From the sequence record MK817115.1: DNA of 64,000 nucleotides. One strand, given 5' to 3'. The DNA is from Escherichia phage vB_EcoM_phAPEC6. Below, in pieces: positions 2,255 through 40,439 of this stretch. Each line of letters begins with the position of its first letter. Within the stretch, counting starts at the first letter, position 1. The notes below the pieces were generated by a model. The model ran no database searches. It had not been told where the DNA came from and saw only the letters and a program-made list of their open reading frames with translations. Both the position numbers and the translations under genes were made by a program.

Positions 2255-2536
2255 TTATACCGGAGATACGGTACTCAACATTAGTAAAGCTGTATTTTCA
2301 TCAATTTCATGATAGTTGTCGCATACAAGTGTTTCCAACAAATCAGGATGATAATAATAATGTTCATAATCAGTATCATTAGGAATATGATGATATACAA
2401 ATACAATATCAAAAACATCATCATCATTTTCACACTTGAAACGCTTTAATTCATCGACACTTTCAACAAAGCCATATTCTTCAAAAGCAGTTGTACCATC
2501 TGGTAGTTTCATCCATGCACTTGCAACAATTTTCAT
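2255..2536 (-). CDS. hypothetical acidic protein
   Basis: 93 aa ORF. Confidence 0.4.
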   Translation of the reverse strand: MKIVASAWMKLPDGTTAFEEYGFVESVDELKRFKCENDDDVFDIVFVYHHIPNDTDYEHYYYHPDLLETLVCDNYHEIDENTALLMLSTVSPV

Positions 2537-2553
2537 AAATTTGTGAATCCTTA

Positions 2554-3138
2554 TTATTTTGTAATGTTTAGTTTAGAAACGAAGTATTCTTTGGCTTCTT
2601 CATATGTCATTGAAGTATACATAGGATTCCATTTATCGTCAATATCGATAAGTACTTTAACTTCCATTACATCTTCTGGTGTATAGAATTGCCATGTATT
2701 GTGATCTGGCTCATAGTTAGGGTCCAGTACAAAAACCGTACCATCCTGACCATAAACTTCTCCATCCTCTAATAGCTCACGGAAGAAATCTTCTCCAGTA
2801 GTTGGGTCTTCGTATGCATTATAAAAACGAAAAACAACATTCTCAACATCTGTTCGGGTAGTACCATCGTCTTCATCATATTCCACCAAACGGTCCTGAT
2901 GAAATACTAGGTCAATTGCACCAATGCGAGGTTTATTATGTGGAGTTTTGATTTCTTGCTGGGAATTGTAATCAATACGTTCAGTACTGATGAATACTCC
3001 ACTAGGGGTAATTTCAATACCAGACACATTTTCTGGTGAATAGTAAGCGTCACACATGTCATCAATGTGCATGTGCTCATTATACACTTCCATTTCAGGA
3101 TTCTGCAACAACAGTGCTGCTAAGTCTTTTGCTTTCAA
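2554..3138 (-). CDS. hypothetical protein, paralog of 3874..4491
   Basis: 194 aa; N-terminus MKAKDLAALLLQNPEMEVY matches MKSHDLAKLLLSQPNLEIY of 3874..4491; C-terminal TYEEAKEY vs SYDEAIEC. Confidence 0.5.
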   Translation of the reverse strand: MKAKDLAALLLQNPEMEVYNEHMHIDDMCDAYYSPENVSGIEITPSGVFISTERIDYNSQQEIKTPHNKPRIGAIDLVFHQDRLVEYDEDDGTTRTDVENVVFRFYNAYEDPTTGEDFFRELLEDGEVYGQDGTVFVLDPNYEPDHNTWQFYTPEDVMEVKVLIDIDDKWNPMYTSMTYEEAKEYFVSKLNITK

Positions 3139-3527
3139 TCTACAATCTCCATAGAATTATCATCATCATAATCATCACTGGTGTACTTAGTTTTTACCTC
3201 AATACCATTCTCATGTAGGTATGTGATAAAACCATTACCATAAACGAATTGATTATAATATGTATTTTCTTCTACATGTGCATCATAATCATCTTCATAA
3301 TATGTGGGTATTGTAACATCATGACCTACACTTTGCAAGTACTGGAACAATTCTTTCAGTACTACTTCGATATCACCTTCTTCTGTGCCATAACAATATG
3401 CAGGTTCACCGTGAGTGAATTTGAATCCTTTACAGGAAACTGTATAAATGTCACTCATGTTCATACCACAATCATCACATTCATGTATAGAACAATGCTG
3501 GTGGAATTTAATCTTTTTGATTTGCAT
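3135..3527 (-). CDS. hypothetical protein
   Basis: 130 aa ORF, several Cys/His near N-terminus. Confidence 0.4.
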   Translation of the reverse strand: MQIKKIKFHQHCSIHECDDCGMNMSDIYTVSCKGFKFTHGEPAYCYGTEEGDIEVVLKELFQYLQSVGHDVTIPTYYEDDYDAHVEENTYYNQFVYGNGFITYLHENGIEVKTKYTSDDYDDDNSMEIVD

Positions 3528-3867
3528 TTAGAAAATCCTGTAAAGATGTAGTAGACATTGGACTATCAGCACCATCATACCACAGTGATGTATATGGCTG
3601 AACTGAACTAATATCAATACACAACCCTTCACGCTCACATTTTTGAGCGAATTCTTCAGTAGTTAGTTTGTTACCAAAAGAAATCTCAAATTCATAACTA
3701 GACATATCAATATCAGTACTGTAAATCAATGCACCATCATATGTAATATGGAGTTTAGAATCTGCGTCAAAAAGACGATCTGAAATAGCTTCATAATCAT
3801 CTTCAGGAACTGCTTCAATAAGACGTGCCATTAGTCCAGATGTTACGCGGTAATCACTCATGTTCAA
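3508..3867 (-). CDS. hypothetical protein
   Basis: 119 aa ORF. Confidence 0.4.
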   Translation of the reverse strand: MNMSDYRVTSGLMARLIEAVPEDDYEAISDRLFDADSKLHITYDGALIYSTDIDMSSYEFEISFGNKLTTEEFAQKCEREGLCIDISSVQPYTSLWYDGADSPMSTTSLQDFLNANQKD

Positions 3868-3873
3868 CCTCTT

Positions 3874-4491
3874 TTATTTTTTAATTTTATCAATCATAGA
3901 AGGTGATACTTTTACATTGAATTCAGAATCAGGAAAATCTTTAGAAAATGAATCAATTTGTTCTTGTGAAAGTTCTTCTTTTTGTGGAAATAACATTTTA
4001 ACTAAATTTTTACCACATTCAATTGCTTCATCATACGACATAGTTTCCCATGTTCCATGCCAAGTACTAGGTTCATATTCTGTCAGTACAGAAATGAAAT
4101 CAATATCATCGGGTGTATACCAAACAGCATTTTGATTCCCTGATGGTGCTGATTGATTTTTACCTAATAAAACAATTGGCTTTTCATAAGGAATGTTAAA
4201 TATCAACCCAGATTCTAAGTTAAGAACAGTTTGAATAGATGAACCCTCCAATTTTGGAGTAATAGTACCATCCTTAAAGAAAATTTGTACATGACCCAAG
4301 AGCGGGGTTTCGTATGGTGTAAGTACATTTTCAGAAACTGATGTGGGTTTTACCGTTGTGAAAATGCCAGATGGGGTGACCATTAATTTATTATCAAAAT
4401 TCTGATAATGCAAGTCACTCTCTGCATCATAATGATAAATTTCTAGATTTGGTTGAGATAGTAGTAATTTTGCTAAATCATGAGATTTCAT
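3874..4491 (-). CDS. hypothetical protein, paralog of 2554..3138
   Basis: Track ORF extends to 4521 but that ATG lies inside the terminator hairpin; internal ATG at 4491 preceded by GGAG gives MKSHDLAKLLL... aligned with the paralog start. Confidence 0.5.
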   Translation of the reverse strand: MKSHDLAKLLLSQPNLEIYHYDAESDLHYQNFDNKLMVTPSGIFTTVKPTSVSENVLTPYETPLLGHVQIFFKDGTITPKLEGSSIQTVLNLESGLIFNIPYEKPIVLLGKNQSAPSGNQNAVWYTPDDIDFISVLTEYEPSTWHGTWETMSYDEAIECGKNLVKMLFPQKEELSQEQIDSFSKDFPDSEFNVKVSPSMIDKIKK

Positions 4492-5012: not shown

Positions 5013-5441
5013 TTAGTTAATAATAAAGGTAATTTCAGGATTCATTTCAGAAACTGCATTGCGTTTACTTCTATCCCATAGTATTCTGTTATTATACAAA
5101 GAAGAATCACATACTACAAGTAAGCAATTTCTTAATCTACTTACAGTACTTTGATTATTTAAATCAGTTTCTGAAATAAAAAATACATTTTCAGGAACTA
5201 CTAAAGGAATAGATTTATCAAAAAACAAAACTACAATAGGTCTTGTTGTATGAACTGATTTAACGAAATCCAAAATACTATTATAAAAATTAGTTTCTTT
5301 AGTAATTACTGACGGATCTTTAATTCTTTTCAAATATTGCTGTGGTAATTGATGTTCGTCTTTTATCTGAAACTCAAAATATTCTTTGAATAACATTTGT
5401 GTTAATTCGGATTTATCGGATATTTTCGTTGTGTTACTCAT
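5013..5441 (-). CDS. hypothetical protein
   Basis: 142 aa ORF. Confidence 0.45.
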   Translation of the reverse strand: MSNTTKISDKSELTQMLFKEYFEFQIKDEHQLPQQYLKRIKDPSVITKETNFYNSILDFVKSVHTTRPIVVLFFDKSIPLVVPENVFFISETDLNNQSTVSRLRNCLLVVCDSSLYNNRILWDRSKRNAVSEMNPEITFIIN

Positions 5442-5526
5442 TCACTTCGTTCTCTCGTAACTCAAGAAGTCACTGCGTTTACTTCGTAAACTAGTTCCTT
5501 CTGAAAATGATAATGTACTTTAAAAA

Positions 5527-6096
5527 CTTGACGGGATTTGTTGAGGACTATTACATCCCCCCGCAGGGGAATGAAGGTAATAAAAAAGAGACAATTAAGT
5601 CTCTCTTGACGATGATGGCATCGGATATTATCGAATTGCGAATTTCTCAAATTTTGGACGGATCTTTCTTGTACCAAAATTTAGAGAGCGAAAGCGGGTT
5701 GCTCGGTTTCTCTCTATCGCAGTCATATGCAACGGTCGCTGGTCTTTTCATCAACAGCACTCAGTACTAACTCTATTCGATCAAAGTAGTACTTGTTCTC
5801 AAATTTTGGACGCAACTTTCTTGTAAAAATTGCGTCCGCTATCCTTGAACTCCCTTAGCAAATCTGGTAAGGTGCGAACCTTATACATCTATCTAGGAAC
5901 TCTCTGTATGCTTATCGGAGTTCTTTATACAGCCGTGTCGCCGTGATTCGTGGTCTTACATCGTGTTTGTTTGAATGCCAGTACTCTAACAGGTTTCTTC
6001 TGCTGTTCGCTACAACGGTAAAGCTCATCTATCCTTTACATTTTCAAGAGAAGTAGGTTCTCAGTGTCCATTTTTCAATGTCCGTTGTCATTTTCT
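5527..6096. ncRNA. candidate large structured non-coding element, copy A (paralog of 61208..61740)
   Basis: No conserved ORF; shares blocks with copy B (CATCCCCCCGCAGGGGA, GAAAGCGGGTTGCTC, GTTTCTCTCTATCGC, GCAACGGTCG, TGGTAAGGTGCGA, GGAGTTCTTTATACAGCCG, CTGCTGTTCG); hairpins with conserved stems and divergent loops; strand unresolved. Confidence 0.35.
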
Positions 6097-6103
6097 ATAT
6101 ACA

Positions 6104-6114
6104 TTATATCATTG
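6104..6114 (-). promoter_or_regulatory. extended -10 promoter-like motif TGATATAAT (minus strand), preceded by ATGGGACAT box
   Basis: Plus ATTATATCATT = minus AATGATATAAT; same 11-mer at 61748-61758 and TGATATAAT at 31238-31247. Confidence 0.3.
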
Positions 6115-6131
6115 GAACATATAATGTCCCA

Positions 6132-6530
6132 TTACATGTATACTTTTTTAAAATCCTTAGAACAACGATCAAAAATTGTGTTTATGAATTCAACATCTTC
6201 GATAATATTCGAATCGTTAGCAACATTTTCATTTCTTGTCGTGTTCCTATATGTGTGTTCAGGATGATTGTATACCACCTTGACTACATTATTTAGGTCT
6301 ATAAAATTTGACGTTTTTTGCGTATATGAAGCCTGAAGCTTGATGAGTTTACCATCATTCTCAAGATTGGTTTTATGAATTAGTTCTTCAATACCAGTTA
6401 AATGGCTATAGCTATCTTTTTCTTTTACAAAAGTAATAGTAACAAGAACTGCTTTCTCATCTCCCATATCGGAAATGTTTTTTACAGCACTGATAATTTC
6501 TAAGTTTGAAAAATCTAATTCTTTAAGCAT
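6132..6530 (-). CDS. hypothetical protein
   Basis: 132 aa ORF. Confidence 0.45.
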   Translation of the reverse strand: MLKELDFSNLEIISAVKNISDMGDEKAVLVTITFVKEKDSYSHLTGIEELIHKTNLENDGKLIKLQASYTQKTSNFIDLNNVVKVVYNHPEHTYRNTTRNENVANDSNIIEDVEFINTIFDRCSKDFKKVYM

Positions 6531-12109: not shown

Positions 12110-12263
12110 TTTTAATGTCTACACCAGTAGCACCAGAAAAATTATTTTGAAATTTAATAACTCCGGTAGTGTGGATATCTGTGAAAATTTGTTGTGCCAT
12201 ACTTAATCCTTGTGTTAATTTATATTGAGTATTTATTGAGTGTAATGGCATTTTTAGTACCAT
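12072..12263 (-). CDS. hypothetical small protein (possibly N-terminal part of 11573..12109 via frameshift)
   Basis: 63 aa ORF overlapping the next ORF by 38 nt; similar composition. Confidence 0.3.
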   Translation of the reverse strand: MVLKMPLHSINTQYKLTQGLSMAQQIFTDIHTTGVIKFQNNFSGATGVDIKNDGFNIVSTRIY

Positions 12264-21653: not shown

Positions 21654-21661
21654 GTATTTAT
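21654..21661 (-). promoter_or_regulatory. T4-type late promoter TATAAATA
   Basis: Plus TATTTATA = minus TATAAATA, about 34 nt upstream of the ATG at 21620. Confidence 0.45.
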
Positions 21662-21669
21662 ATACATAA

Positions 21670-29095: not shown

Positions 29096-29139
29096 TTAAA
29101 ATACCTATTGAATTGATTTACGCCATTTGGCTAGTTTAA

Positions 29140-29185
29140 CATTCATGTAAGTAAGGAACTCACGTTCCATCTCTTCTGAACTCAT
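29140..29185 (-). repeat. degenerate duplicate of the 3' end of gene 29227..29877
   Basis: About 75 percent identity to 29255..29300; encodes SSEEMEREFLTYMNVKLAKWRKS vs gene C-terminus SAEEVEREFITRVQIALFQSKK. Confidence 0.4.
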
Positions 29186-29226
29186 ATTATCGCATTGCAA
29201 AGCGAACATGTCAAGTGTACATCATC

Positions 29227-29877
29227 CTACTTTTTCGATTGGAACAATGCAATCTGTACGCGTGTAATGAACTCACGCTCTACTTCTTCAGCACTGTGTC
29301 CTTCATATTGTGTCTTGAAAAGTTCCATTGCTTTTAGTGCCATCTGTACAGAAATGTCTGTAATACTTTCAGTACTGGTACTTTCAAATACATTTTTGAG
29401 GCTTAGTTCATCATCACTAACAACATTAACTTCAACTGGGGTGTTGTTTTGTTCATCAATGTAACGTAAAGCTTTGTACTCTGCTTTTGTTAGATTTTCA
29501 TACCAACGTGGGTGGTGGAACAAATCATGCATTGTAACTTTTGCTGCTTCCATGAGAAGTAATAGCTCTTCATTTCGGCGAATATGTTTTTCTTCACCTT
29601 TATGATTTTTGTAAGTATATGCACAACGCATAATGGCTAATCGAACTTCACCTGCTTTGGTGATAGTGTATGAATGTATTGCATTATCATAATCACTTTC
29701 CCATTTCTGACCAGCATATTCGTACCAAAGTTCATTAGTTTCCCATTTAATGAAATCAAATTCTAACAAACTGTCAATCAACTTAGCCAAATTACCACTG
29801 TACTCACGGCTAATGATATTGAAACCACCATTGTACTTTGCAAGGTACAGAATCTTTTCTTGAGTTACATTTTTCAT
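29227..29877 (-). CDS. hypothetical protein
   Basis: 216 aa ORF. Confidence 0.45.
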   Translation of the reverse strand: MKNVTQEKILYLAKYNGGFNIISREYSGNLAKLIDSLLEFDFIKWETNELWYEYAGQKWESDYDNAIHSYTITKAGEVRLAIMRCAYTYKNHKGEEKHIRRNEELLLLMEAAKVTMHDLFHHPRWYENLTKAEYKALRYIDEQNNTPVEVNVVSDDELSLKNVFESTSTESITDISVQMALKAMELFKTQYEGHSAEEVEREFITRVQIALFQSKK

Positions 29878-30233: not shown

Positions 30234-30791
30234 TTAGCTCCCTTTGTATTGATGTTTACGTTTAGTACTGTATTTCCAGCCAGTACTGTGTCTTGTTCTG
30301 ATATCGTCCCAATACGATGGTAATGAACGCATCTTACGTCTTCCACGTATTTCAGGTTCCCCCTCATCCTTCAGTACTGCACAAGCCATACGACGCTCTT
30401 GCTGAGTCTTAGGACGCTTGTATCGGGAGTGGTTATGTTTGTACATATACGAACGCTTATGTCGCCATTCCTTATCACGAGCTTTACGTTTATGTTCCCA
30501 GTACTCATTATAGAGTATCATGTATTCACCCATAAGTAAATCAGGAGATACAAGTAATCCTTTTTCAGTACAAAGATAATAACCCACAAACTTTTCTGGA
30601 AACATTTCGTAATAGAAACGGTTCTTCCAAAATGTTTCACGATTCTTTTTGTTGAATTCAGCTAAATCGAATTTCATCTTACTGTGGAAACGGTCTATAC
30701 CGTCATGTTCCGCAATGTACTCTAACAGATTATCAATAATCTCAACTTTACCAGAATCGTGATACAACGTAAATGTTTGGTCAAAAAACAT
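30234..30791 (-). CDS. hypothetical protein with basic C-terminus
   Basis: 185 aa ORF; Arg/Lys-rich C-terminal third. Confidence 0.45.
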   Translation of the reverse strand: MFFDQTFTLYHDSGKVEIIDNLLEYIAEHDGIDRFHSKMKFDLAEFNKKNRETFWKNRFYYEMFPEKFVGYYLCTEKGLLVSPDLLMGEYMILYNEYWEHKRKARDKEWRHKRSYMYKHNHSRYKRPKTQQERRMACAVLKDEGEPEIRGRRKMRSLPSYWDDIRTRHSTGWKYSTKRKHQYKGS

Positions 30792-30885
30792 ATGAAATCT
30801 CCTTTAAGTTAAAATAACCTAATGGAAAGTCATTCTTCCTTTAATACATGTTCTCATGATTTGTTCCTTTTGTCAAGATATAGAT

Positions 30886-30913
30886 ATAAAAAATCCCTGC
30901 CAAAAGACAGGGA
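30886..30913 (-). terminator. terminator-like hairpin
   Basis: Stem CCCTG/CAGGG flanked by A-runs on both sides; downstream of 31018..31206. Confidence 0.3.
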
Positions 30914-31017
30914 CGAAAAACTGAAATAACACATGGAGTTCTTTTTAATTTAATAAAAAGTATTATTATTCTTATAAAAGTATTTATTAAGAACTCCACA
31001 ATATGGCTTCAAATGAA

Positions 31018-31274: not shown

Positions 31275-32714
31275 TTACATATTTTCTTCAGCAAATTCTG
31301 CAAGTGGTGAACGAACAACACCTTCTAGTTCGATGACACGACAACCTGCCCAATCTTTAAACTTCTCAGTTACATATGTCAAACCACTGTTAACAGGACT
31401 AATAAACTTACTGTCAATCTGACTCAAGTTACCCATAATTACTACTTTACAGTTTAATCCTGCTCGTGTCAAGATTGTTTTGGCTTGTGCAGGTGTAATG
31501 TTTTGGAATTCATCAACTACTAGAATAGTGTTGGTGAATGAACGTCCACGTACAAAGTTTAGTGCTTTAAATTGAATAACATTACGTTTCATAATCTCTT
31601 CAATACTACCTTGAGGGTTAGCATCATCTTTATGAAGAAACTCTAACGCGTCAATTGCGGCTCCACAGAATGGAATCACTTTTTCTGCTTCTGAACCTGG
31701 CAAGAAACCAATATCTTCAAACTGTGAGTCTTGAGTTTTAGAGAAGATGATTCGGTCGTATTTACGTTTTTCCAGTACTAATTCTAATGCAGTAGCAATC
31801 GTAATTAGTGTTTTACCAGTACCAGCAGAACCTAGCAGTACTGTTAGATGTACATCAGGATCGAGAATACTGTTGATGGCGAGTGCTTGTTGGATATTCT
31901 TTGCTTTAATATCCCATACTTTAGCACGTAAAGCTACTGATTGTCCAATATCTTGGAATACCAAAATATCTTCTGGTGTTAGTGTTCCATCATCTTCCTC
32001 AATTGCTGATTGACCTTCGTACACAAATAATACGTCTGCATCATCATATAGATAATCACCGATGCATAGATTTTGTGGGAGCAAATGCTCAATCAAGCTT
32101 TTGGAAATGTAATGATACAAACGACGACCAACTTGTTCGGATTGAATATTAGTATTGGTTAAGTTGCTGTATACTTCCCAAAAATTGATTTCCAAATGGT
32201 GTTGACCAATGTGAATCAAATCACTATCACCAATAACAATATCATGGCGATAATCTTGTACCTCGACACCATAACTTAGTGCTTTGATACGCATGTTGAT
32301 ATCACGAGTTACCAGTACTGATTCTGTTGCTAAAGCTACCAGAATGATTTTATCATCAGGTACTGTGCTTTTGAGAAGGGTTTGAACTTTCTCTTCTGAA
32401 CCTTTAGTACGAATTAGTGCTTCAGCTTCTTCGTTTGTAATAACAAACAATTTGCTATCAGGATTCATATTGGTATGAACATCAGCAATATTAACACCAG
32501 TACTACTAATCTCATCATGTGATGCATCTGCAATAATTGCTTCAATGTTACGAATAGCAACACGAGCATCGCGTGAAACATCTACATTACGACTCTTAAT
32601 TGAATCCAATTCTTCCAGTACTGTAAATGGTAGAATGATTGCAGCACCATCAAAAGCAATAGATGCATTAGGGTCAGATAGTAGTACGTTTGTGTCAATT
32701 GTATATTTTTTCAT
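31275..32714 (-). CDS. phoH: PhoH-like ATPase with N-terminal PIN domain
   Basis: 479 aa; Walker A LGSAGTGKT, Walker B VVDEFQN; N-terminal PIN-like acidic residues. Confidence 0.8.
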   Translation of the reverse strand: MKKYTIDTNVLLSDPNASIAFDGAAIILPFTVLEELDSIKSRNVDVSRDARVAIRNIEAIIADASHDEISSTGVNIADVHTNMNPDSKLFVITNEEAEALIRTKGSEEKVQTLLKSTVPDDKIILVALATESVLVTRDINMRIKALSYGVEVQDYRHDIVIGDSDLIHIGQHHLEINFWEVYSNLTNTNIQSEQVGRRLYHYISKSLIEHLLPQNLCIGDYLYDDADVLFVYEGQSAIEEDDGTLTPEDILVFQDIGQSVALRAKVWDIKAKNIQQALAINSILDPDVHLTVLLGSAGTGKTLITIATALELVLEKRKYDRIIFSKTQDSQFEDIGFLPGSEAEKVIPFCGAAIDALEFLHKDDANPQGSIEEIMKRNVIQFKALNFVRGRSFTNTILVVDEFQNITPAQAKTILTRAGLNCKVVIMGNLSQIDSKFISPVNSGLTYVTEKFKDWAGCRVIELEGVVRSPLAEFAEENM

Positions 32715-34934: not shown

Positions 34935-35528
34935 TTAATATTTTAAAACATCAAACTCTTCGCTTACGCTTGTTACATTATCACTAACAATTTTAAAAAT
35001 TGATTTGATACGTTCGTGTAGTGGTTTTTTAGATTCGTTCTCAACTTCAATATATGCTTGCATTGCTGCAATTGCATGATATGTCCCACTACCTACTGCG
35101 GTAATTCTTGTTTTAGGTTGTAGTACTGAAAAGTCTTCTTGAACTTCATAGATTGTATGATTGTGGAGAATGATAAATTGTCCACCTCCTACATCTTGTG
35201 ATGCATCTCGTGCACCCCATTCTTCTTTAAACATTTGACGAATAATTGGAATAACTTTAAGAACCAAATATTGTGAAAATGTTTGACTAGCATCTTGTTC
35301 AGGTAAATTAAGGTTATAATTTAACAACTGACCCATACGAAATGATGTAGTATAACCCAATGCCATTACTTCTTTAGTTCTAGTTAGTCCATCATCATGT
35401 AACTTGATAAATTCTTTCTCGAATACCTTTGGCTCAGTTTGAACAGTTTTTGTAAATCCATTGCTTCCTAACTTATCCCCAGCAATAAAAGAACTTACTC
35501 CGTCAGTGTGTGCAATAATACAGGTCAT
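34935..35528 (-). CDS. HslV-like Ntn-hydrolase peptidase
   Basis: Start moved to ATG 35528 (MTCIIAHTDGVSSFIAGDKLGSNG resembles HslV MTTIVSV...VIAGDGQATLGN); AVGSGTYHAIAA resembles HslV GSGSPYALGAA. Confidence 0.45.
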   Translation of the reverse strand: MTCIIAHTDGVSSFIAGDKLGSNGFTKTVQTEPKVFEKEFIKLHDDGLTRTKEVMALGYTTSFRMGQLLNYNLNLPEQDASQTFSQYLVLKVIPIIRQMFKEEWGARDASQDVGGGQFIILHNHTIYEVQEDFSVLQPKTRITAVGSGTYHAIAAMQAYIEVENESKKPLHERIKSIFKIVSDNVTSVSEEFDVLKY

Positions 35529-35855: not shown

Positions 35856-36479
35856 TTATTGTTTGACTGAACCGTAAAAAACCAGTTCTGGTTTTGTTAA
35901 TATTACAACATCTTCACCACGAGAACGACTAACTCTAAATAGAACTTCTGGTGGGATTCCATTTGCTGCATATAGTGAAAAAAGGAAACCTACCTTTGTT
36001 GCCATTTCTTCGGTAAAAGTTGATAACTGTCTTACAGACACAAATGAATTATCACCATCAGTAACATTACTTTTAATCGAAATGTTATGAAGACCCAGTA
36101 CTGAGCGATTTGTCATATATCGCTTTTCGGGAGATACACTAAAGAATACCACAGTACATGCTGAATTGCAATACCTAGAAACAATTAAATTTATCCCATT
36201 GTCTCTAACAAAGTTTGCCATTCGAATACCTGCATCAAAATCACCACCAGGAGATGTAATTGTGATGGTATCATAGTGTTCTTTATCATACAACTCTATC
36301 ATACGCTTGAGTGACCCATCTGTAATATCTGATATGAAATATACATTTCGGGTTTCAGGATTATACTTTATCACATTTTTACTTTCAATACCAGCACTGG
36401 CTGGAAAATTTATTAACAATAGAAACATTGCTGCTTGTATCACTTCAAGCCATAGTCTTTTCATATAACAAGTCCTCAA
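35856..36479 (-). CDS. secreted ClpP/SppA-fold serine peptidase-like protein
   Basis: 207 aa; signal peptide; ITSPGGDFDAGIRMANFV matches the ClpP-fold SPGG motif; start may be the internal ATG (MKRLWLEV). Confidence 0.45.
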   Translation of the reverse strand: MRTCYMKRLWLEVIQAAMFLLLINFPASAGIESKNVIKYNPETRNVYFISDITDGSLKRMIELYDKEHYDTITITSPGGDFDAGIRMANFVRDNGINLIVSRYCNSACTVVFFSVSPEKRYMTNRSVLGLHNISIKSNVTDGDNSFVSVRQLSTFTEEMATKVGFLFSLYAANGIPPEVLFRVSRSRGEDVVILTKPELVFYGSVKQ

Positions 36480-36500
36480 TTTTGTTTAGGAAGATATAAA

Positions 36501-36529
36501 TAATATAGTACTTAAACACTTAAGTCAAA
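36501..36529 (-). promoter_or_regulatory. sigma70-like promoter (TTGACT-N17-TATTAT) for 35856..36479
   Basis: Reverse complement of 36501-36529 reads TTGACT, 17-nt spacer, TATTAT. Confidence 0.3.
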
Positions 36530-36689
36530 CTTTTTCTGTACTTAACTCAAATTTTTAAAAATAAAACTTAAGGTGTACAGTTTATAACAGATCATATCAT
36601 ACCACTGATGTTTTGTCAACTAGTTCATGGTGCATCTGATGTAAAAAACAAATATATTTCATACTTATATTTAAAAAAGGAAATAAAAT

Positions 36690-37067
36690 ATGAAAGCTAT
36701 CGCAGCACAAGGTAAACTACCATTCAATATCGGCGGGTTTTGTGTAACCGCAGCTAATATAAACGGTGAATTGAAATATAACTTGAACATCTTTAATCAA
36801 CGTTCTAGTTGTGTTTACGATCTCATTGATACTGATTTTAATGTTTATCGTTTTGTAACTATCACTAGTTATGATAAAGATAAAATTAGATTAGATGCAT
36901 CTAAAACAGCATTGGAAATTGCACCAACTCTAGCCAAAAATACTTTTTGTATTAAGATTGACGATAGTGCATTTGCTGAATCATTCCAGTTTCATAAAAT
37001 TAAATTGAGTACTGGGGCGATGAAATATCACCCTTGGGATTTGTATTATTGCAACCTCCCAGGTTAA
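36690..37067 (+). CDS. hypothetical protein; only convincing plus-strand gene in the window
   Basis: 125 aa; RBS AAGGAAATAAAATATG; followed on plus by hairpin and T-run. Confidence 0.5.
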   Translation: MKAIAAQGKLPFNIGGFCVTAANINGELKYNLNIFNQRSSCVYDLIDTDFNVYRFVTITSYDKDKIRLDASKTALEIAPTLAKNTFCIKIDDSAFAESFQFHKIKLSTGAMKYHPWDLYYCNLPG

Positions 37068-37098
37068 CAAAAAAGGAGCCTTGTGGCTCCTTTTTTTA
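37066..37098. terminator. bidirectional rho-independent terminator
   Basis: Stem AGGAGCC/GGCTCCT, loop TTGT, A-run before and T-run after on plus; sits between the plus gene and the convergent minus gene. Confidence 0.55.
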
Positions 37099-37353
37099 TT
37101 CTACAGTATTAAGCTTCTGACAAATCATATCAGCTTCTACTCGGTCTTTATAATAAATGGTAAATCCAAATCTACTTGTTACCCTTTTCTCACTACGGTG
37201 TATACAGTTTACAATATAGTACTTATTATTTTGTGCAGAAAAACGAACTTCATAATTTCGAAAAGAAGTATTAGGTTCATCCATAGCAACTATATATAAC
37301 ATAAAAATAAAAAACACTGTTATTAGAAAAGCAATAATAATTATTACTGTCAT
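37096..37353 (-). CDS. small membrane protein
   Basis: 85 aa; N-terminal TM helix. Confidence 0.4.
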   Translation of the reverse strand: MTVIIIIAFLITVFFIFMLYIVAMDEPNTSFRNYEVRFSAQNNKYYIVNCIHRSEKRVTSRFGFTIYYKDRVEADMICQKLNTVE

Positions 37354-37841
37354 TTATCAAGACCCTTATCATAAATGCAATTAACAATAATTCCAGCATC
37401 TTCCAGTACTTTAATAGCTTCTGGTGGTGTACGAGGATAATTTTTGAGATAAATTACACGTGAAATCCCACTACCTGCGATCAACTTAGAACAAGTATAA
37501 CATGGTTGTAGTGTTGTGTAAAGAGTAGCACCTTGACGTTCAGTAGGAGAACTATAGAGTAAAGCGTTCATTTCAGCATGGATTTCATGAATATTACTCC
37601 ACTCATGATGTTCATGCTTTGCTTCATCACTAACCCAGTCTTGAAAACGTCCATCATTGACTAAGTGTTGATTCACATCACAACAATTTGGTTGTTTTGA
37701 TGGAGTACCATTGTATCCAGTACTCAATACTCGGTTATTTTTAACAATAACACAACCAACTTTTTGTGAAATACATTTACTTTCCTCAGCAACTACTTCT
37801 GCTATCTTCAACCAAGTCGTATGTTTCATTATAAGCTCCAA
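37350..37841 (-). CDS. dCMP deaminase
   Basis: 163 aa; HAEMNAL and PCYTCSKLI zinc-binding motifs. Confidence 0.75.
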   Translation of the reverse strand: MELIMKHTTWLKIAEVVAEESKCISQKVGCVIVKNNRVLSTGYNGTPSKQPNCCDVNQHLVNDGRFQDWVSDEAKHEHHEWSNIHEIHAEMNALLYSSPTERQGATLYTTLQPCYTCSKLIAGSGISRVIYLKNYPRTPPEAIKVLEDAGIIVNCIYDKGLDK

Positions 37842-39743: not shown

Positions 39744-40439
39744 TTACACCCACTCTTCCACGCCACCGCGACGCTTAACTAAGTACTTGCCTTCTTCGTT
39801 ACGTGGTCCAAGAATAATACCATCAATGAAACCATGTTCACCATATTCAAGAGCTTCTTCTGCATTTAACCACAAATCACGGTCAGCATCTTTAAGTAGT
39901 TGTTCGTGTGTTACACCAACTGCTTCTGCAATTTCTTTAGTCAATAGAGTGTTTAGGGCATCAGAATGTTTAAGTGAAATCTTCTGGTCAGTAATTAGAC
40001 CTTGTGTACCAGAACTTACTTGGTGACACATGAAATAAGAACGCTTACCACCTAAACGGAAACCTTTAGTACCAATTACAGATTGTGTATAGCAACCCAT
40101 TGATGCTGCATAGCCCATTACTACAGTGCGAATTGGAGAAATACAAGACTTAGCAACATCTGCAATACCCAAACCTGCGTGTACTGAACCACCCGGTGAA
40201 CTAATGTAGAATGTAATAGGGGAATCACCTTGTGAGTCTAACCATACCAATTGTTGTTTGATGATATGTGCCATTTGATCATTGAAATCAGTATCAAGGA
40301 AAATGATACGGTCTTGCATCATACGAGATGCTAGATCATATGTACGTTCTGAACCATTAACTTTCTCAACTACGTAAGGAATAGAAATGTTACGTACTTC
40401 GCCATTAGCATAACCACCAAACATGAATTGTTCAACCAT
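39744..40439 (-). CDS. clpP: ClpP-family serine protease
   Basis: 231 aa; SSPGGSVHAG and GYAASMG active-site region, His in FMCHQVSSG. Confidence 0.8.
   Translation of the reverse strand: MVEQFMFGGYANGEVRNISIPYVVEKVNGSERTYDLASRMMQDRIIFLDTDFNDQMAHIIKQQLVWLDSQGDSPITFYISSPGGSVHAGLGIADVAKSCISPIRTVVMGYAASMGCYTQSVIGTKGFRLGGKRSYFMCHQVSSGTQGLITDQKISLKHSDALNTLLTKEIAEAVGVTHEQLLKDADRDLWLNAEEALEYGEHGFIDGIILGPRNEEGKYLVKRRGGVEEWV

Follow-up and report, generated by a model that had tools for sequence, protein, structure and literature searches.

A lone plus-strand gene for an abundant 14.1-kDa virion protein, with a T4-type late-promoter motif upstream, in DNA of the Asteriusvirus type

In bacteriophage T4, the late structural genes run against the early and middle genes, and the late genes with their gp55/TATAAATA late-transcription system are said to have been set out by Geiduschek and Kassavetis in 2010. 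Regarding the decoration of phage particles, T4 Hoc and the Big_2 domains present on tail tube or capsid proteins constitute Ig-like phage decoration, and Ig-like domains are reportedly located on the outside of the particles, as is attributed to Fraser et al. in 2006.

Among the RaK2-like jumbo phages, the heptamer ATAAATA was predicted independently as a late promoter in the study of CBB, being found upstream of genes for structural proteins in both CBB and GAP32 (PMC5259590). The same paper pointed out that this motif resembles the T4 late promoter and that CBB has a sigma factor like gp55, CBB_244; meanwhile, co-activators of the gp33 or gp45 type were not recognised in the group (PMC5259590). 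As seen by cryo-EM, 121Q and phAPEC6 carry decoration densities without an assigned protein, namely a fibre-anchoring protein at the hexamer centres, a ridge lattice and tail rings, and both phages also have an inner body. Databases or the literature already contain the gene described here, its association with the virion and the group's late-promoter motif; the analysis makes small additions to them, which are the reading of the product as a single domain, the statistic on the avoidance of the heptamer and the conservation of the cassette.

Gene, setting and conservation

The window is the whole 64-kb stretch of DNA that was analysed. Six plus-strand ORFs of at least 100 aa were considered, and the ORF at 36690..37067 (125 codons, ATG start, TAA stop, 378 nt) is the only one that is neither overlapped by nor nested in a longer minus-strand ORF, the remaining five having TTG or GTG starts and overlapping minus-strand genes. 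The annotation of phage vB_EcoM_G17 (G17) contains one other plus-strand CDS in the 64 kb, the unconvincing 51-aa ORF G17_00407, in a 690-nt gap at about 5441-6132. The claim of the sequence-only reading, that this is the lone convincing plus-strand gene in 64 kb, is thus borne out by the survey. A Shine-Dalgarno sequence, AAGGA, can be read at 36677-36681 on the plus strand, 8 nt before the ATG. The AT-richness that had been pointed out upstream is confirmed as well, since the 210 nt of the intergenic region 36480-36689 are 77% A+T versus 66.7% for the window, while the CDS, with 66.7% A+T, has the same composition as the window. The divergent neighbour, on the minus strand at 35856..36464, encodes a ClpP/NfeD-like protease with a signal-peptide-like N-terminus (121Q gp473). 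On the other side lies a convergent minus-strand gene at 37096..37353, for an 85-aa protein with a hydrophobic N-terminus (121Q gp470), and upstream of it, also on the minus strand, the dCMP deaminase gene at 37350..37829.

In the segment 35800-38000, identity is 100% with vB_EcoM_G17, Sharanji and two further Escherichia phages, 99% with PBECO4, SP27, slurp01 and JP4, and 91% with 121Q. Judged by these identities, the window belongs to an Asteriusvirus jumbo coliphage of the RaK2-like group, whose members are myoviruses of about 350 kb. The ORF is known as G17_00454, PBECO4 gp098, 121Q gp471 and JP4_206, and in PBECO4 and 121Q it is annotated as "virion structural protein". Some 16 isolates have exactly this protein (100% identity), and in EJP2 the identity is 55%. 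Compared to 121Q, the CDS shows 22 synonymous and 4 non-synonymous differences (dS 0.37, dN 0.013, dN/dS 0.036), which places the ORF under strong purifying selection. Conservation of the ORF in related phages was a point on which the earlier reading had been staked, and it was found together with this selection; the ORF 36690..37067 is shown to be a real, conserved and selected gene.

The setting of the gene is also preserved. A lone opposite-strand gene of this family, convergent with a small hydrophobic ORF and the dCMP deaminase gene, is present in 121Q, PBECO4, EJP2 and UE-S1, all from Asteriusvirus, and the same arrangement occurs in RaK2 (Alcyoneusvirus) and CBB (Mimasvirus), so that three genera have it; no family gene was found at the corresponding site in Ecwhy_1. 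The full cassette, with ATAAATA and a GGAGCC hairpin, is also seen in CBB, EJP2 and UE-S1. The length of the gene at the orthologous site differs, reaching 633 aa in UE-S1, 212 aa in RaK2 and 218 aa in CBB. In addition, G17 has a paralogue, G17_00158, with 384 aa and an N-terminal domain 33% identical, which corresponds to JP4_497, detected in virions, and by its mass (42.88 kDa) to phAPEC6 gp077. This paralogue is likewise a lone plus-strand gene in a minus-strand block, preceded at 31 nt by the sole ATAAATA in 6 kb and followed by a hairpin terminator. There is evidence of a cassette-like turnover at the locus.

Late-promoter motif, leader and terminator

The sequence-only reading had placed a plus-strand TATAAATA about 180 nt upstream of the gene. 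It is found at 36495..36502, 187 nt before the ATG, as an exact match to the T4-type late promoter core, a function that is predicted for it, and its presence is far from chance: the window has 2 copies of TATAAATA versus 13.4 expected, and 4 copies of ATAAATA versus 45.8 +/- 6.4 expected (z = -6.1), making ATAAATA the most depleted among the 5486 heptamers tested in the window. By the G17 annotation, all four copies are intergenic, each directed at the next gene. On the minus strand, the copy at 12236-12230 lies 30 nt from the ATG of a 42-aa ORF followed by a tail-fibre gene, and the masses of both products, 4.66 and 105.34 kDa, are those of the phAPEC6 virion proteins gp315c and gp314c. Another minus-strand copy, at 21662-21655, is positioned just past a terminator and 34 nt ahead of an 898-aa gene, whose product of 98.62 kDa equals, by mass, the phAPEC6 virion protein gp323c. 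Three of the four copies thereby precede genes for virion proteins. The last one, at 30987-30981 on the minus strand, occupies the loop of a hairpin that precedes a terminator, and the gene after it is absent from the virion mass spectrometry list; because of this, not every ATAAATA copy is an obvious promoter.

The TATAAATA site is retained in 121Q and PBECO4. In the loci of EJP2, UE-S1, Ecwhy_1, CBB and the G17 paralogue (5-8 kb), ATAAATA appears once or twice each, in every case 30-45 nt upstream of a family gene, while RaK2 has a variant motif, CATAAATT, at the corresponding place. UE-S1 bears TATTAATA where the TATAAATA of the window aligns and has its own proximal ATAAATA nearer the gene; consequently, the motif of the window is not positionally homologous to the promoters of the relatives, and its position is specific to the lineage. 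The position of the promoter is the weakest link of the expression model. As for the factor that would recognise the motif, a gp55-like sigma is encoded in G17 at 180425..181261, outside the window, beside a gp47-like nuclease gene; it is 74% identical to CBB_244, which in turn matches PHROG 234 (late sigma transcription factor, E = 5e-19) and cyanophage gp55.

The predicted leader, at 36509..36689 on the plus strand, is A+T-rich and overlaps minus-strand promoter-like sites; from the motif to the ATG, no terminator-like sites were found on the plus strand. The possibility of a structured regulatory leader was dropped, as its 207 nt show no unusual RNA structure (z = -0.31), and no Rfam families were found in the window. 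The block 36480-36549 is conserved in 121Q, with TTGACA at the aligned position in UE-S1, while the middle of the leader, 36550-36660, is not homologous to the leader of 121Q. The distance from motif to ATG is 187-273 nt in the PBECO4 and 121Q lineage. The leader of 121Q holds ORF472, whose 43 codons align to the N-terminus of the family (hhalign probability 98.2%, E = 3e-14), and it seems evident from this alignment that an older family gene was cut short there and that another copy came to lie behind it. The leader of the window was considered as a decayed copy of this remnant, and this idea was rejected, as no significant similarity was detected.

Regarding the opposite direction, a minus-strand promoter, TTGACT-N17-TATTAT, had been proposed for the neighbouring gene. 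It is indeed present at 36528..36500, with 10/12 matches, where it might drive early expression of the ClpP-like protease gene, and 3 nt of its -10 hexamer are shared with TATAAATA; however, such patterns occur at chance frequency, with 24 sigma-70-like patterns found in the window versus 19.4 +/- 5 in shuffles. Given this lack of enrichment, little weight is placed on the sigma-70-like sites, including a better match on the same strand at 36619..36591, TTGACA-N17-TATGAT with an extended -10 TG (11/12), in a segment that differs in 121Q.

Downstream of the gene, the sequence A6-GGAGCC-TTGT-GGCTCC-T7 at 37069..37097 (stems 37075-37080 and 37085-37090) forms an intrinsic terminator for both strands, with folds of -17.8 and -17.6 kcal/mol (z -4.7 and -5.3). 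It sits between the convergent stop codons of the plus-strand gene (TAA) and of the 85-aa minus-strand gene, as expected for the bidirectional terminator shared with the convergent gene that was originally proposed, and it is also annotated as a terminator in G17. The GGAGCC/GGCTCC stem with a loop of four nucleotides, the A-run and the T-run are the same in the window, 121Q, EJP2, UE-S1 and CBB, while the hairpin of RaK2 at this locus is different.

Another heptamer stands out in the window by its abundance. GTACTGA, in the context A-GTACTGA-A/T, has 105 copies versus 8 expected, spread over the two orientations and over all reading frames except those where it would create a stop codon. In the long ORFs, it occurs 94 times versus 19.8 +/- 4.0 after synonymous-codon shuffling, and it is similarly frequent in the RaK2 and CBB loci; no mention of it was found in the literature searched.

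Virion presence and protein family

The product is shown to be an abundant 14.1-kDa virion component. The virion proteome of JP4 lists JP4_206, which has the identical sequence, with 4 unique peptides and 12 PSMs (PMC12648861). Its abundance of 8.9e7 places it at rank 4 of 49 in the JP4 virions, where it is surpassed by the major capsid protein (6.6e8), JP4_352 (1.4e8) and the tail sheath (1.2e8) (PMC12648861). In phAPEC6, gp347 appears in Table 1 of the structural proteome with 14.10 kDa, 8 unique peptides and a coverage of 75.2%, the highest in the table, and near the PhoH protein gp341c it is the only gene without the complement suffix (PMC7247149). The product of 36690..37067 was equated with gp347 by mass, strand and gene order, the computed masses of the 125-aa protein (14,108 Da) and of the PhoH of the window (53.21 kDa) both matching the phAPEC6 table. 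In addition, the CBB orthologue, CBB_112, was found in virions by mass spectrometry (PMC5259590). The virion proteomes of JP4 and phAPEC6 also include PhoH, an HslV-like peptidase, thymidylate synthase, ClpP and topoisomerase (PMC12648861, PMC7247149); because enzymes such as PhoH, the HslV-like peptidase and thymidylate synthase are found in virions too, virion presence does not prove a surface location.

The 125-aa protein, which is basic (pI 8.3), matches PHROG 33171 over its full length (E = 4.6e-88) and, at profile positions 3-125, PHROG 10468, a 384-aa "virion structural protein" (E = 2.5e-13). It has no match in Pfam, NCBIfam or PADLOC, and no DNA-binding, defence or regulatory domain was matched. 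The protein is all-beta, and its AlphaFold2 model has a pLDDT of 86.5. A BFVD structure search returned family members only, and in the profile search against the PDB the matches were confined to the Ig part of the homologues, which resembles lambda gpV, the T5 tail tube protein pb6, a Hoc-like protein and decoration proteins, with none for the N-terminal domain. By these comparisons, the domain has no detectable relation to any solved fold.

An exhaustive HMMER search gave 83 cluster representatives sharing the domain, always at the extreme N-terminus (residues ~3-120) of proteins from 76 to 1859 aa. In the longer members, it is followed by Ig-like domains of the Big_2, Invasin_D3 or Big_1 type, numbering from one to many, with one Big_2 domain in RaK2 ORF496, one in CBB_112 and six in the UE-S1 orthologue. 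Such domains are typical of the family, though not universal, and the 125-aa protein has none; about 10 of the 83 representatives consist, as it does, of the N-terminal domain alone. Of this Ig-displaying family, which is confined to RaK2-like jumbo phages, the product represents only the ~115-aa N-terminal domain. Since it is the non-Ig N-terminal module only, the note "Ig domain" given for 121Q does not apply to it.

Expression, role and comparison with known systems

The explanation that fits best, and that is held to be probable, is that of a late gene, with a T4-type late promoter read by a gp55-like sigma, for a virion protein whose N-terminal domain is a module of attachment to the capsid or tail, this copy being anchor-only. 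With good support, host RNA polymerase carrying the gp55-like sigma would start transcription late at TATAAATA, with a predicted start near 36509. The transcript would comprise an unstructured leader of about 180 nt, followed by the 378-nt gene, and would stop at the hairpin 37069-37097, where the convergent dCMP-deaminase operon of the minus strand would end too. Through its opposite orientation, private promoter and shared terminator, the gene would then be kept apart from the surrounding early and middle transcription. The suggestion of independent regulation made from the sequence is supported by these observations, the gene having its own promoter motif and terminator and being set against the flow of its neighbours. 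With moderate support, the N-terminal domain most likely attaches the proteins of the family to the capsid or tail surface, and the copy in the window would then act as an anchor-only decoration protein.

The idea that such a gene is a moron or a regulator, i.e., a foreign accessory gene acting on host or phage gene expression, is the least probable of the readings considered and is largely refuted. An autonomous, opposite-facing unit with a promoter motif and a terminator, the lack of a known domain, the missing gene at the Ecwhy_1 site and the different lengths of leader and gene among the relatives would suit it, but the same site is kept in Asteriusvirus, Alcyoneusvirus and Mimasvirus, the A+T content is that of the genome, the product is abundant in virions in two or three independent proteomes, and regulatory, defence and NCBIfam matches are lacking in a protein whose homologues have Ig-like surface domains. 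Moreover, the opposite orientation follows the rule of T4 late genes and is not a sign of foreign origin. In this respect, the sequence-only reading is not supported. A decaying remnant of an Ig-bearing gene, truncated, still translated and functionless, is very improbable: the dN/dS of 0.036, the full identity in some 16 isolates, the abundance in virions and the domain-only members in several lineages all weigh against it, although longer genes stand at the site in UE-S1, RaK2 and CBB and a truncated 43-codon piece of the family lies just upstream in 121Q. A packaged internal protein, housed in the head and ejected into the host, would be in keeping with the many non-structural proteins of the same proteomes, with the basic pI and with the inner body of 121Q and phAPEC6. 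Nevertheless, it is considered unlikely, as the same domain is fused to Ig-like domains in the homologues, the protein gives a signal on a par with the tail sheath, and external capsid and tail densities on both phages are free of an assigned protein.

The promoter admits a further alternative, in which TATAAATA belongs just to the -10 region of the minus-strand protease gene, and the plus-strand gene uses a proximal middle promoter or a late variant. The distance of 187 nt, versus 30-45 nt in the relatives, the overlap with TATTAT of the opposite strand and the presence in UE-S1 of TATTAATA at the aligned site, plus its own proximal ATAAATA, speak for it. Against it, no plus-strand sigma-70-like site of at least 9/12 was found in 36480-36690, and, apart from TATAAATA, the vicinity of the gene holds just one sequence close to the late motif, TAAAAATA at 36556; in addition, ATAAATA is avoided genome-wide to such an extreme that each remaining copy is, by implication, active, and 121Q keeps the motif although the sequence between motif and gene was replaced. 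This alternative is therefore judged rather unlikely. Promoter or transcript data were not found in the papers on Sharanji, fEgEco12 and UE-S1, and no Asteriusvirus transcriptome was found in the literature.

The 14.1-kDa protein is possibly one of the proteins behind the external decoration density on 121Q and phAPEC6, either as the anchor of the 'hair' at the hexamer centre or as the ridge lattice, with about one copy per capsid subunit; an abundant, bare N-terminal module of 14 kDa is a concrete candidate for such density. If true, the N-terminal domain would be a new attachment fold for interchangeable Ig-like 'hair' modules in RaK2-like jumbo phages, and copies without Ig-like domains would occupy or share sites with the 384-aa paralogue. 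The avoidance signature of ATAAATA, in its turn, points at virion genes and is usable to map late promoters in genomes of 350 kb.

Compared to the known members of the group, RaK2 ORF496, CBB_112 and the GAP32 Ig domain-containing protein are more distant orthologues with the same N-terminal domain, sharing the position, the opposite strand, the convergence with a small ORF and the dCMP deaminase gene, and the detection in virions. They differ in that the copies of the window, PBECO4 and 121Q have no Ig-like domain, whereas RaK2 and CBB have one Big_2 and UE-S1 six, and in the 187-nt leader of the window. Like the T4 late system, the locus presents a predicted -10-only promoter of the TATAAATA type, and the gp55-like sigma gene lies beside genes for gp47/46-like nucleases; unlike it, co-activators of the gp33/gp45 type are unrecognised in the group, and the leader in the window is unusually long.

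The family resembles T4 Hoc and the Big_2 decoration proteins in combining an anchor domain with displayed Ig-like domains; however, its anchor is N-terminal, while that of Hoc is C-terminal, and the member in the window lacks the Ig-like domain. With the lambdoid morons, the gene shares the self-contained unit of promoter, gene and terminator, a feature that is common to ordinary late genes here. In contrast to morons, it is neither sporadic, nor compositionally foreign, nor host-directed, and it encodes a component of the virion.

ATAAATA copies and genes for virion proteins

ATAAATA, the core of T4-type late promoters, is the most avoided heptamer of the window, with 4 copies compared to 45 expected, and all four are intergenic: 12230-12236 (-), 21655-21662 (-), 30981-30987 (-) and 36495-36502 (+), the latter preceding the gene under study (36690..37067, +). 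Two of them are found 30-34 nt upstream of genes encoding products that agree in mass with phAPEC6 virion proteins, namely gp315c/gp314c (tail fibre) and gp323c, whose presence in the virion was verified by mass spectrometry. The same arrangement is seen outside the window in a 384-aa paralogue of the gene under study (G17 71451..72605; L012, its G17 locus, 2501-3655), known as 121Q gp155, phAPEC6 gp077 and JP4_497. Like the gene under study, it is a lone plus-strand gene inside a minus-strand block, having ATAAATA 31 nt upstream and a hairpin terminator, and its product has been detected in virions.

A long hairpin, GGAGTTCTT...AAGAACTCC (region 30880-31000), holds the copy at 30981-30987 (-) in its loop and is followed by a terminator-like hairpin and then TTGACA, upstream of the gene 30234..30791. 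The product of this gene was not detected in the virion proteomes; this copy of ATAAATA is not an obvious late promoter. The avoidance of ATAAATA, together with its placement, provides a simple predictor of late promoters for such phage genomes.

Enzymes and proteases near the gene

Regarding the 'metabolic' block, the PhoH-like protein (31275..32714, -), the HslV-like peptidase (34935..35528, -) and the ClpP-like protease (39744..40439, -) have all been reported in the virion proteomes of JP4 and/or phAPEC6, and thus virion association in these phages is not confined to classical structural proteins. The divergent neighbour (35856..36464, -) is a ClpP/NfeD-like protease with weak Pfam matches and PHROG 26024, and its signal-peptide-like N-terminus, MKRLWLEVIQAAMFLLLINFPASAG, suggests an exported protease.

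The GTACTGA heptamer

GTACTGA occurs 105 times in the window, compared to 8.1 expected (z = +34), with 53 copies on the plus and 52 on the minus strand, in the context A-GTACTGA-A/T; examples are 36098-36104 (+), 22019/22022 and 60487/60497. The copies are intragenic, in both orientations and in every frame with no resulting stop codon, and nine of them form the palindrome TCAGTACTGA. As the long ORFs of the window hold 94 copies, compared to 19.8 +/- 4.0 after synonymous-codon shuffling, the heptamer is selected at the DNA level. No mention of it was found in the literature searched; it may serve as a binding word or as a signal for replication, modification or nicking. A density of approximately 1-1.9 per kb is also seen in the RaK2, CBB, EJP2, UE-S1 and Ecwhy_1 loci (L006-L011).

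Comparison with G17 and 121Q

Compared with the G17 record, features upstream of approximately 29.2 kb are shifted by about 83 nt and those downstream coincide, therefore indicating a small indel at about 29100-29230; the window is probably a different isolate of the same species as G17. The 690-nt stretch at 5441-6132 has no convincing gene; there, the G17 annotation places a 51-aa plus-strand ORF, G17_00407, similar to 121Q_516, and an Rfam search of the stretch gave no match.

The leader of the gene 36690..37067 carries no remnant resembling 121Q ORF472. In 121Q, this annotated 43-codon ORF (3847-3978 of its locus, L003) lies in the leader upstream of gp471 and is a truncated N-terminus of gp471's own protein family (hhalign probability 98.2%), a remnant that is evidence for gene replacement at the gp471 locus.
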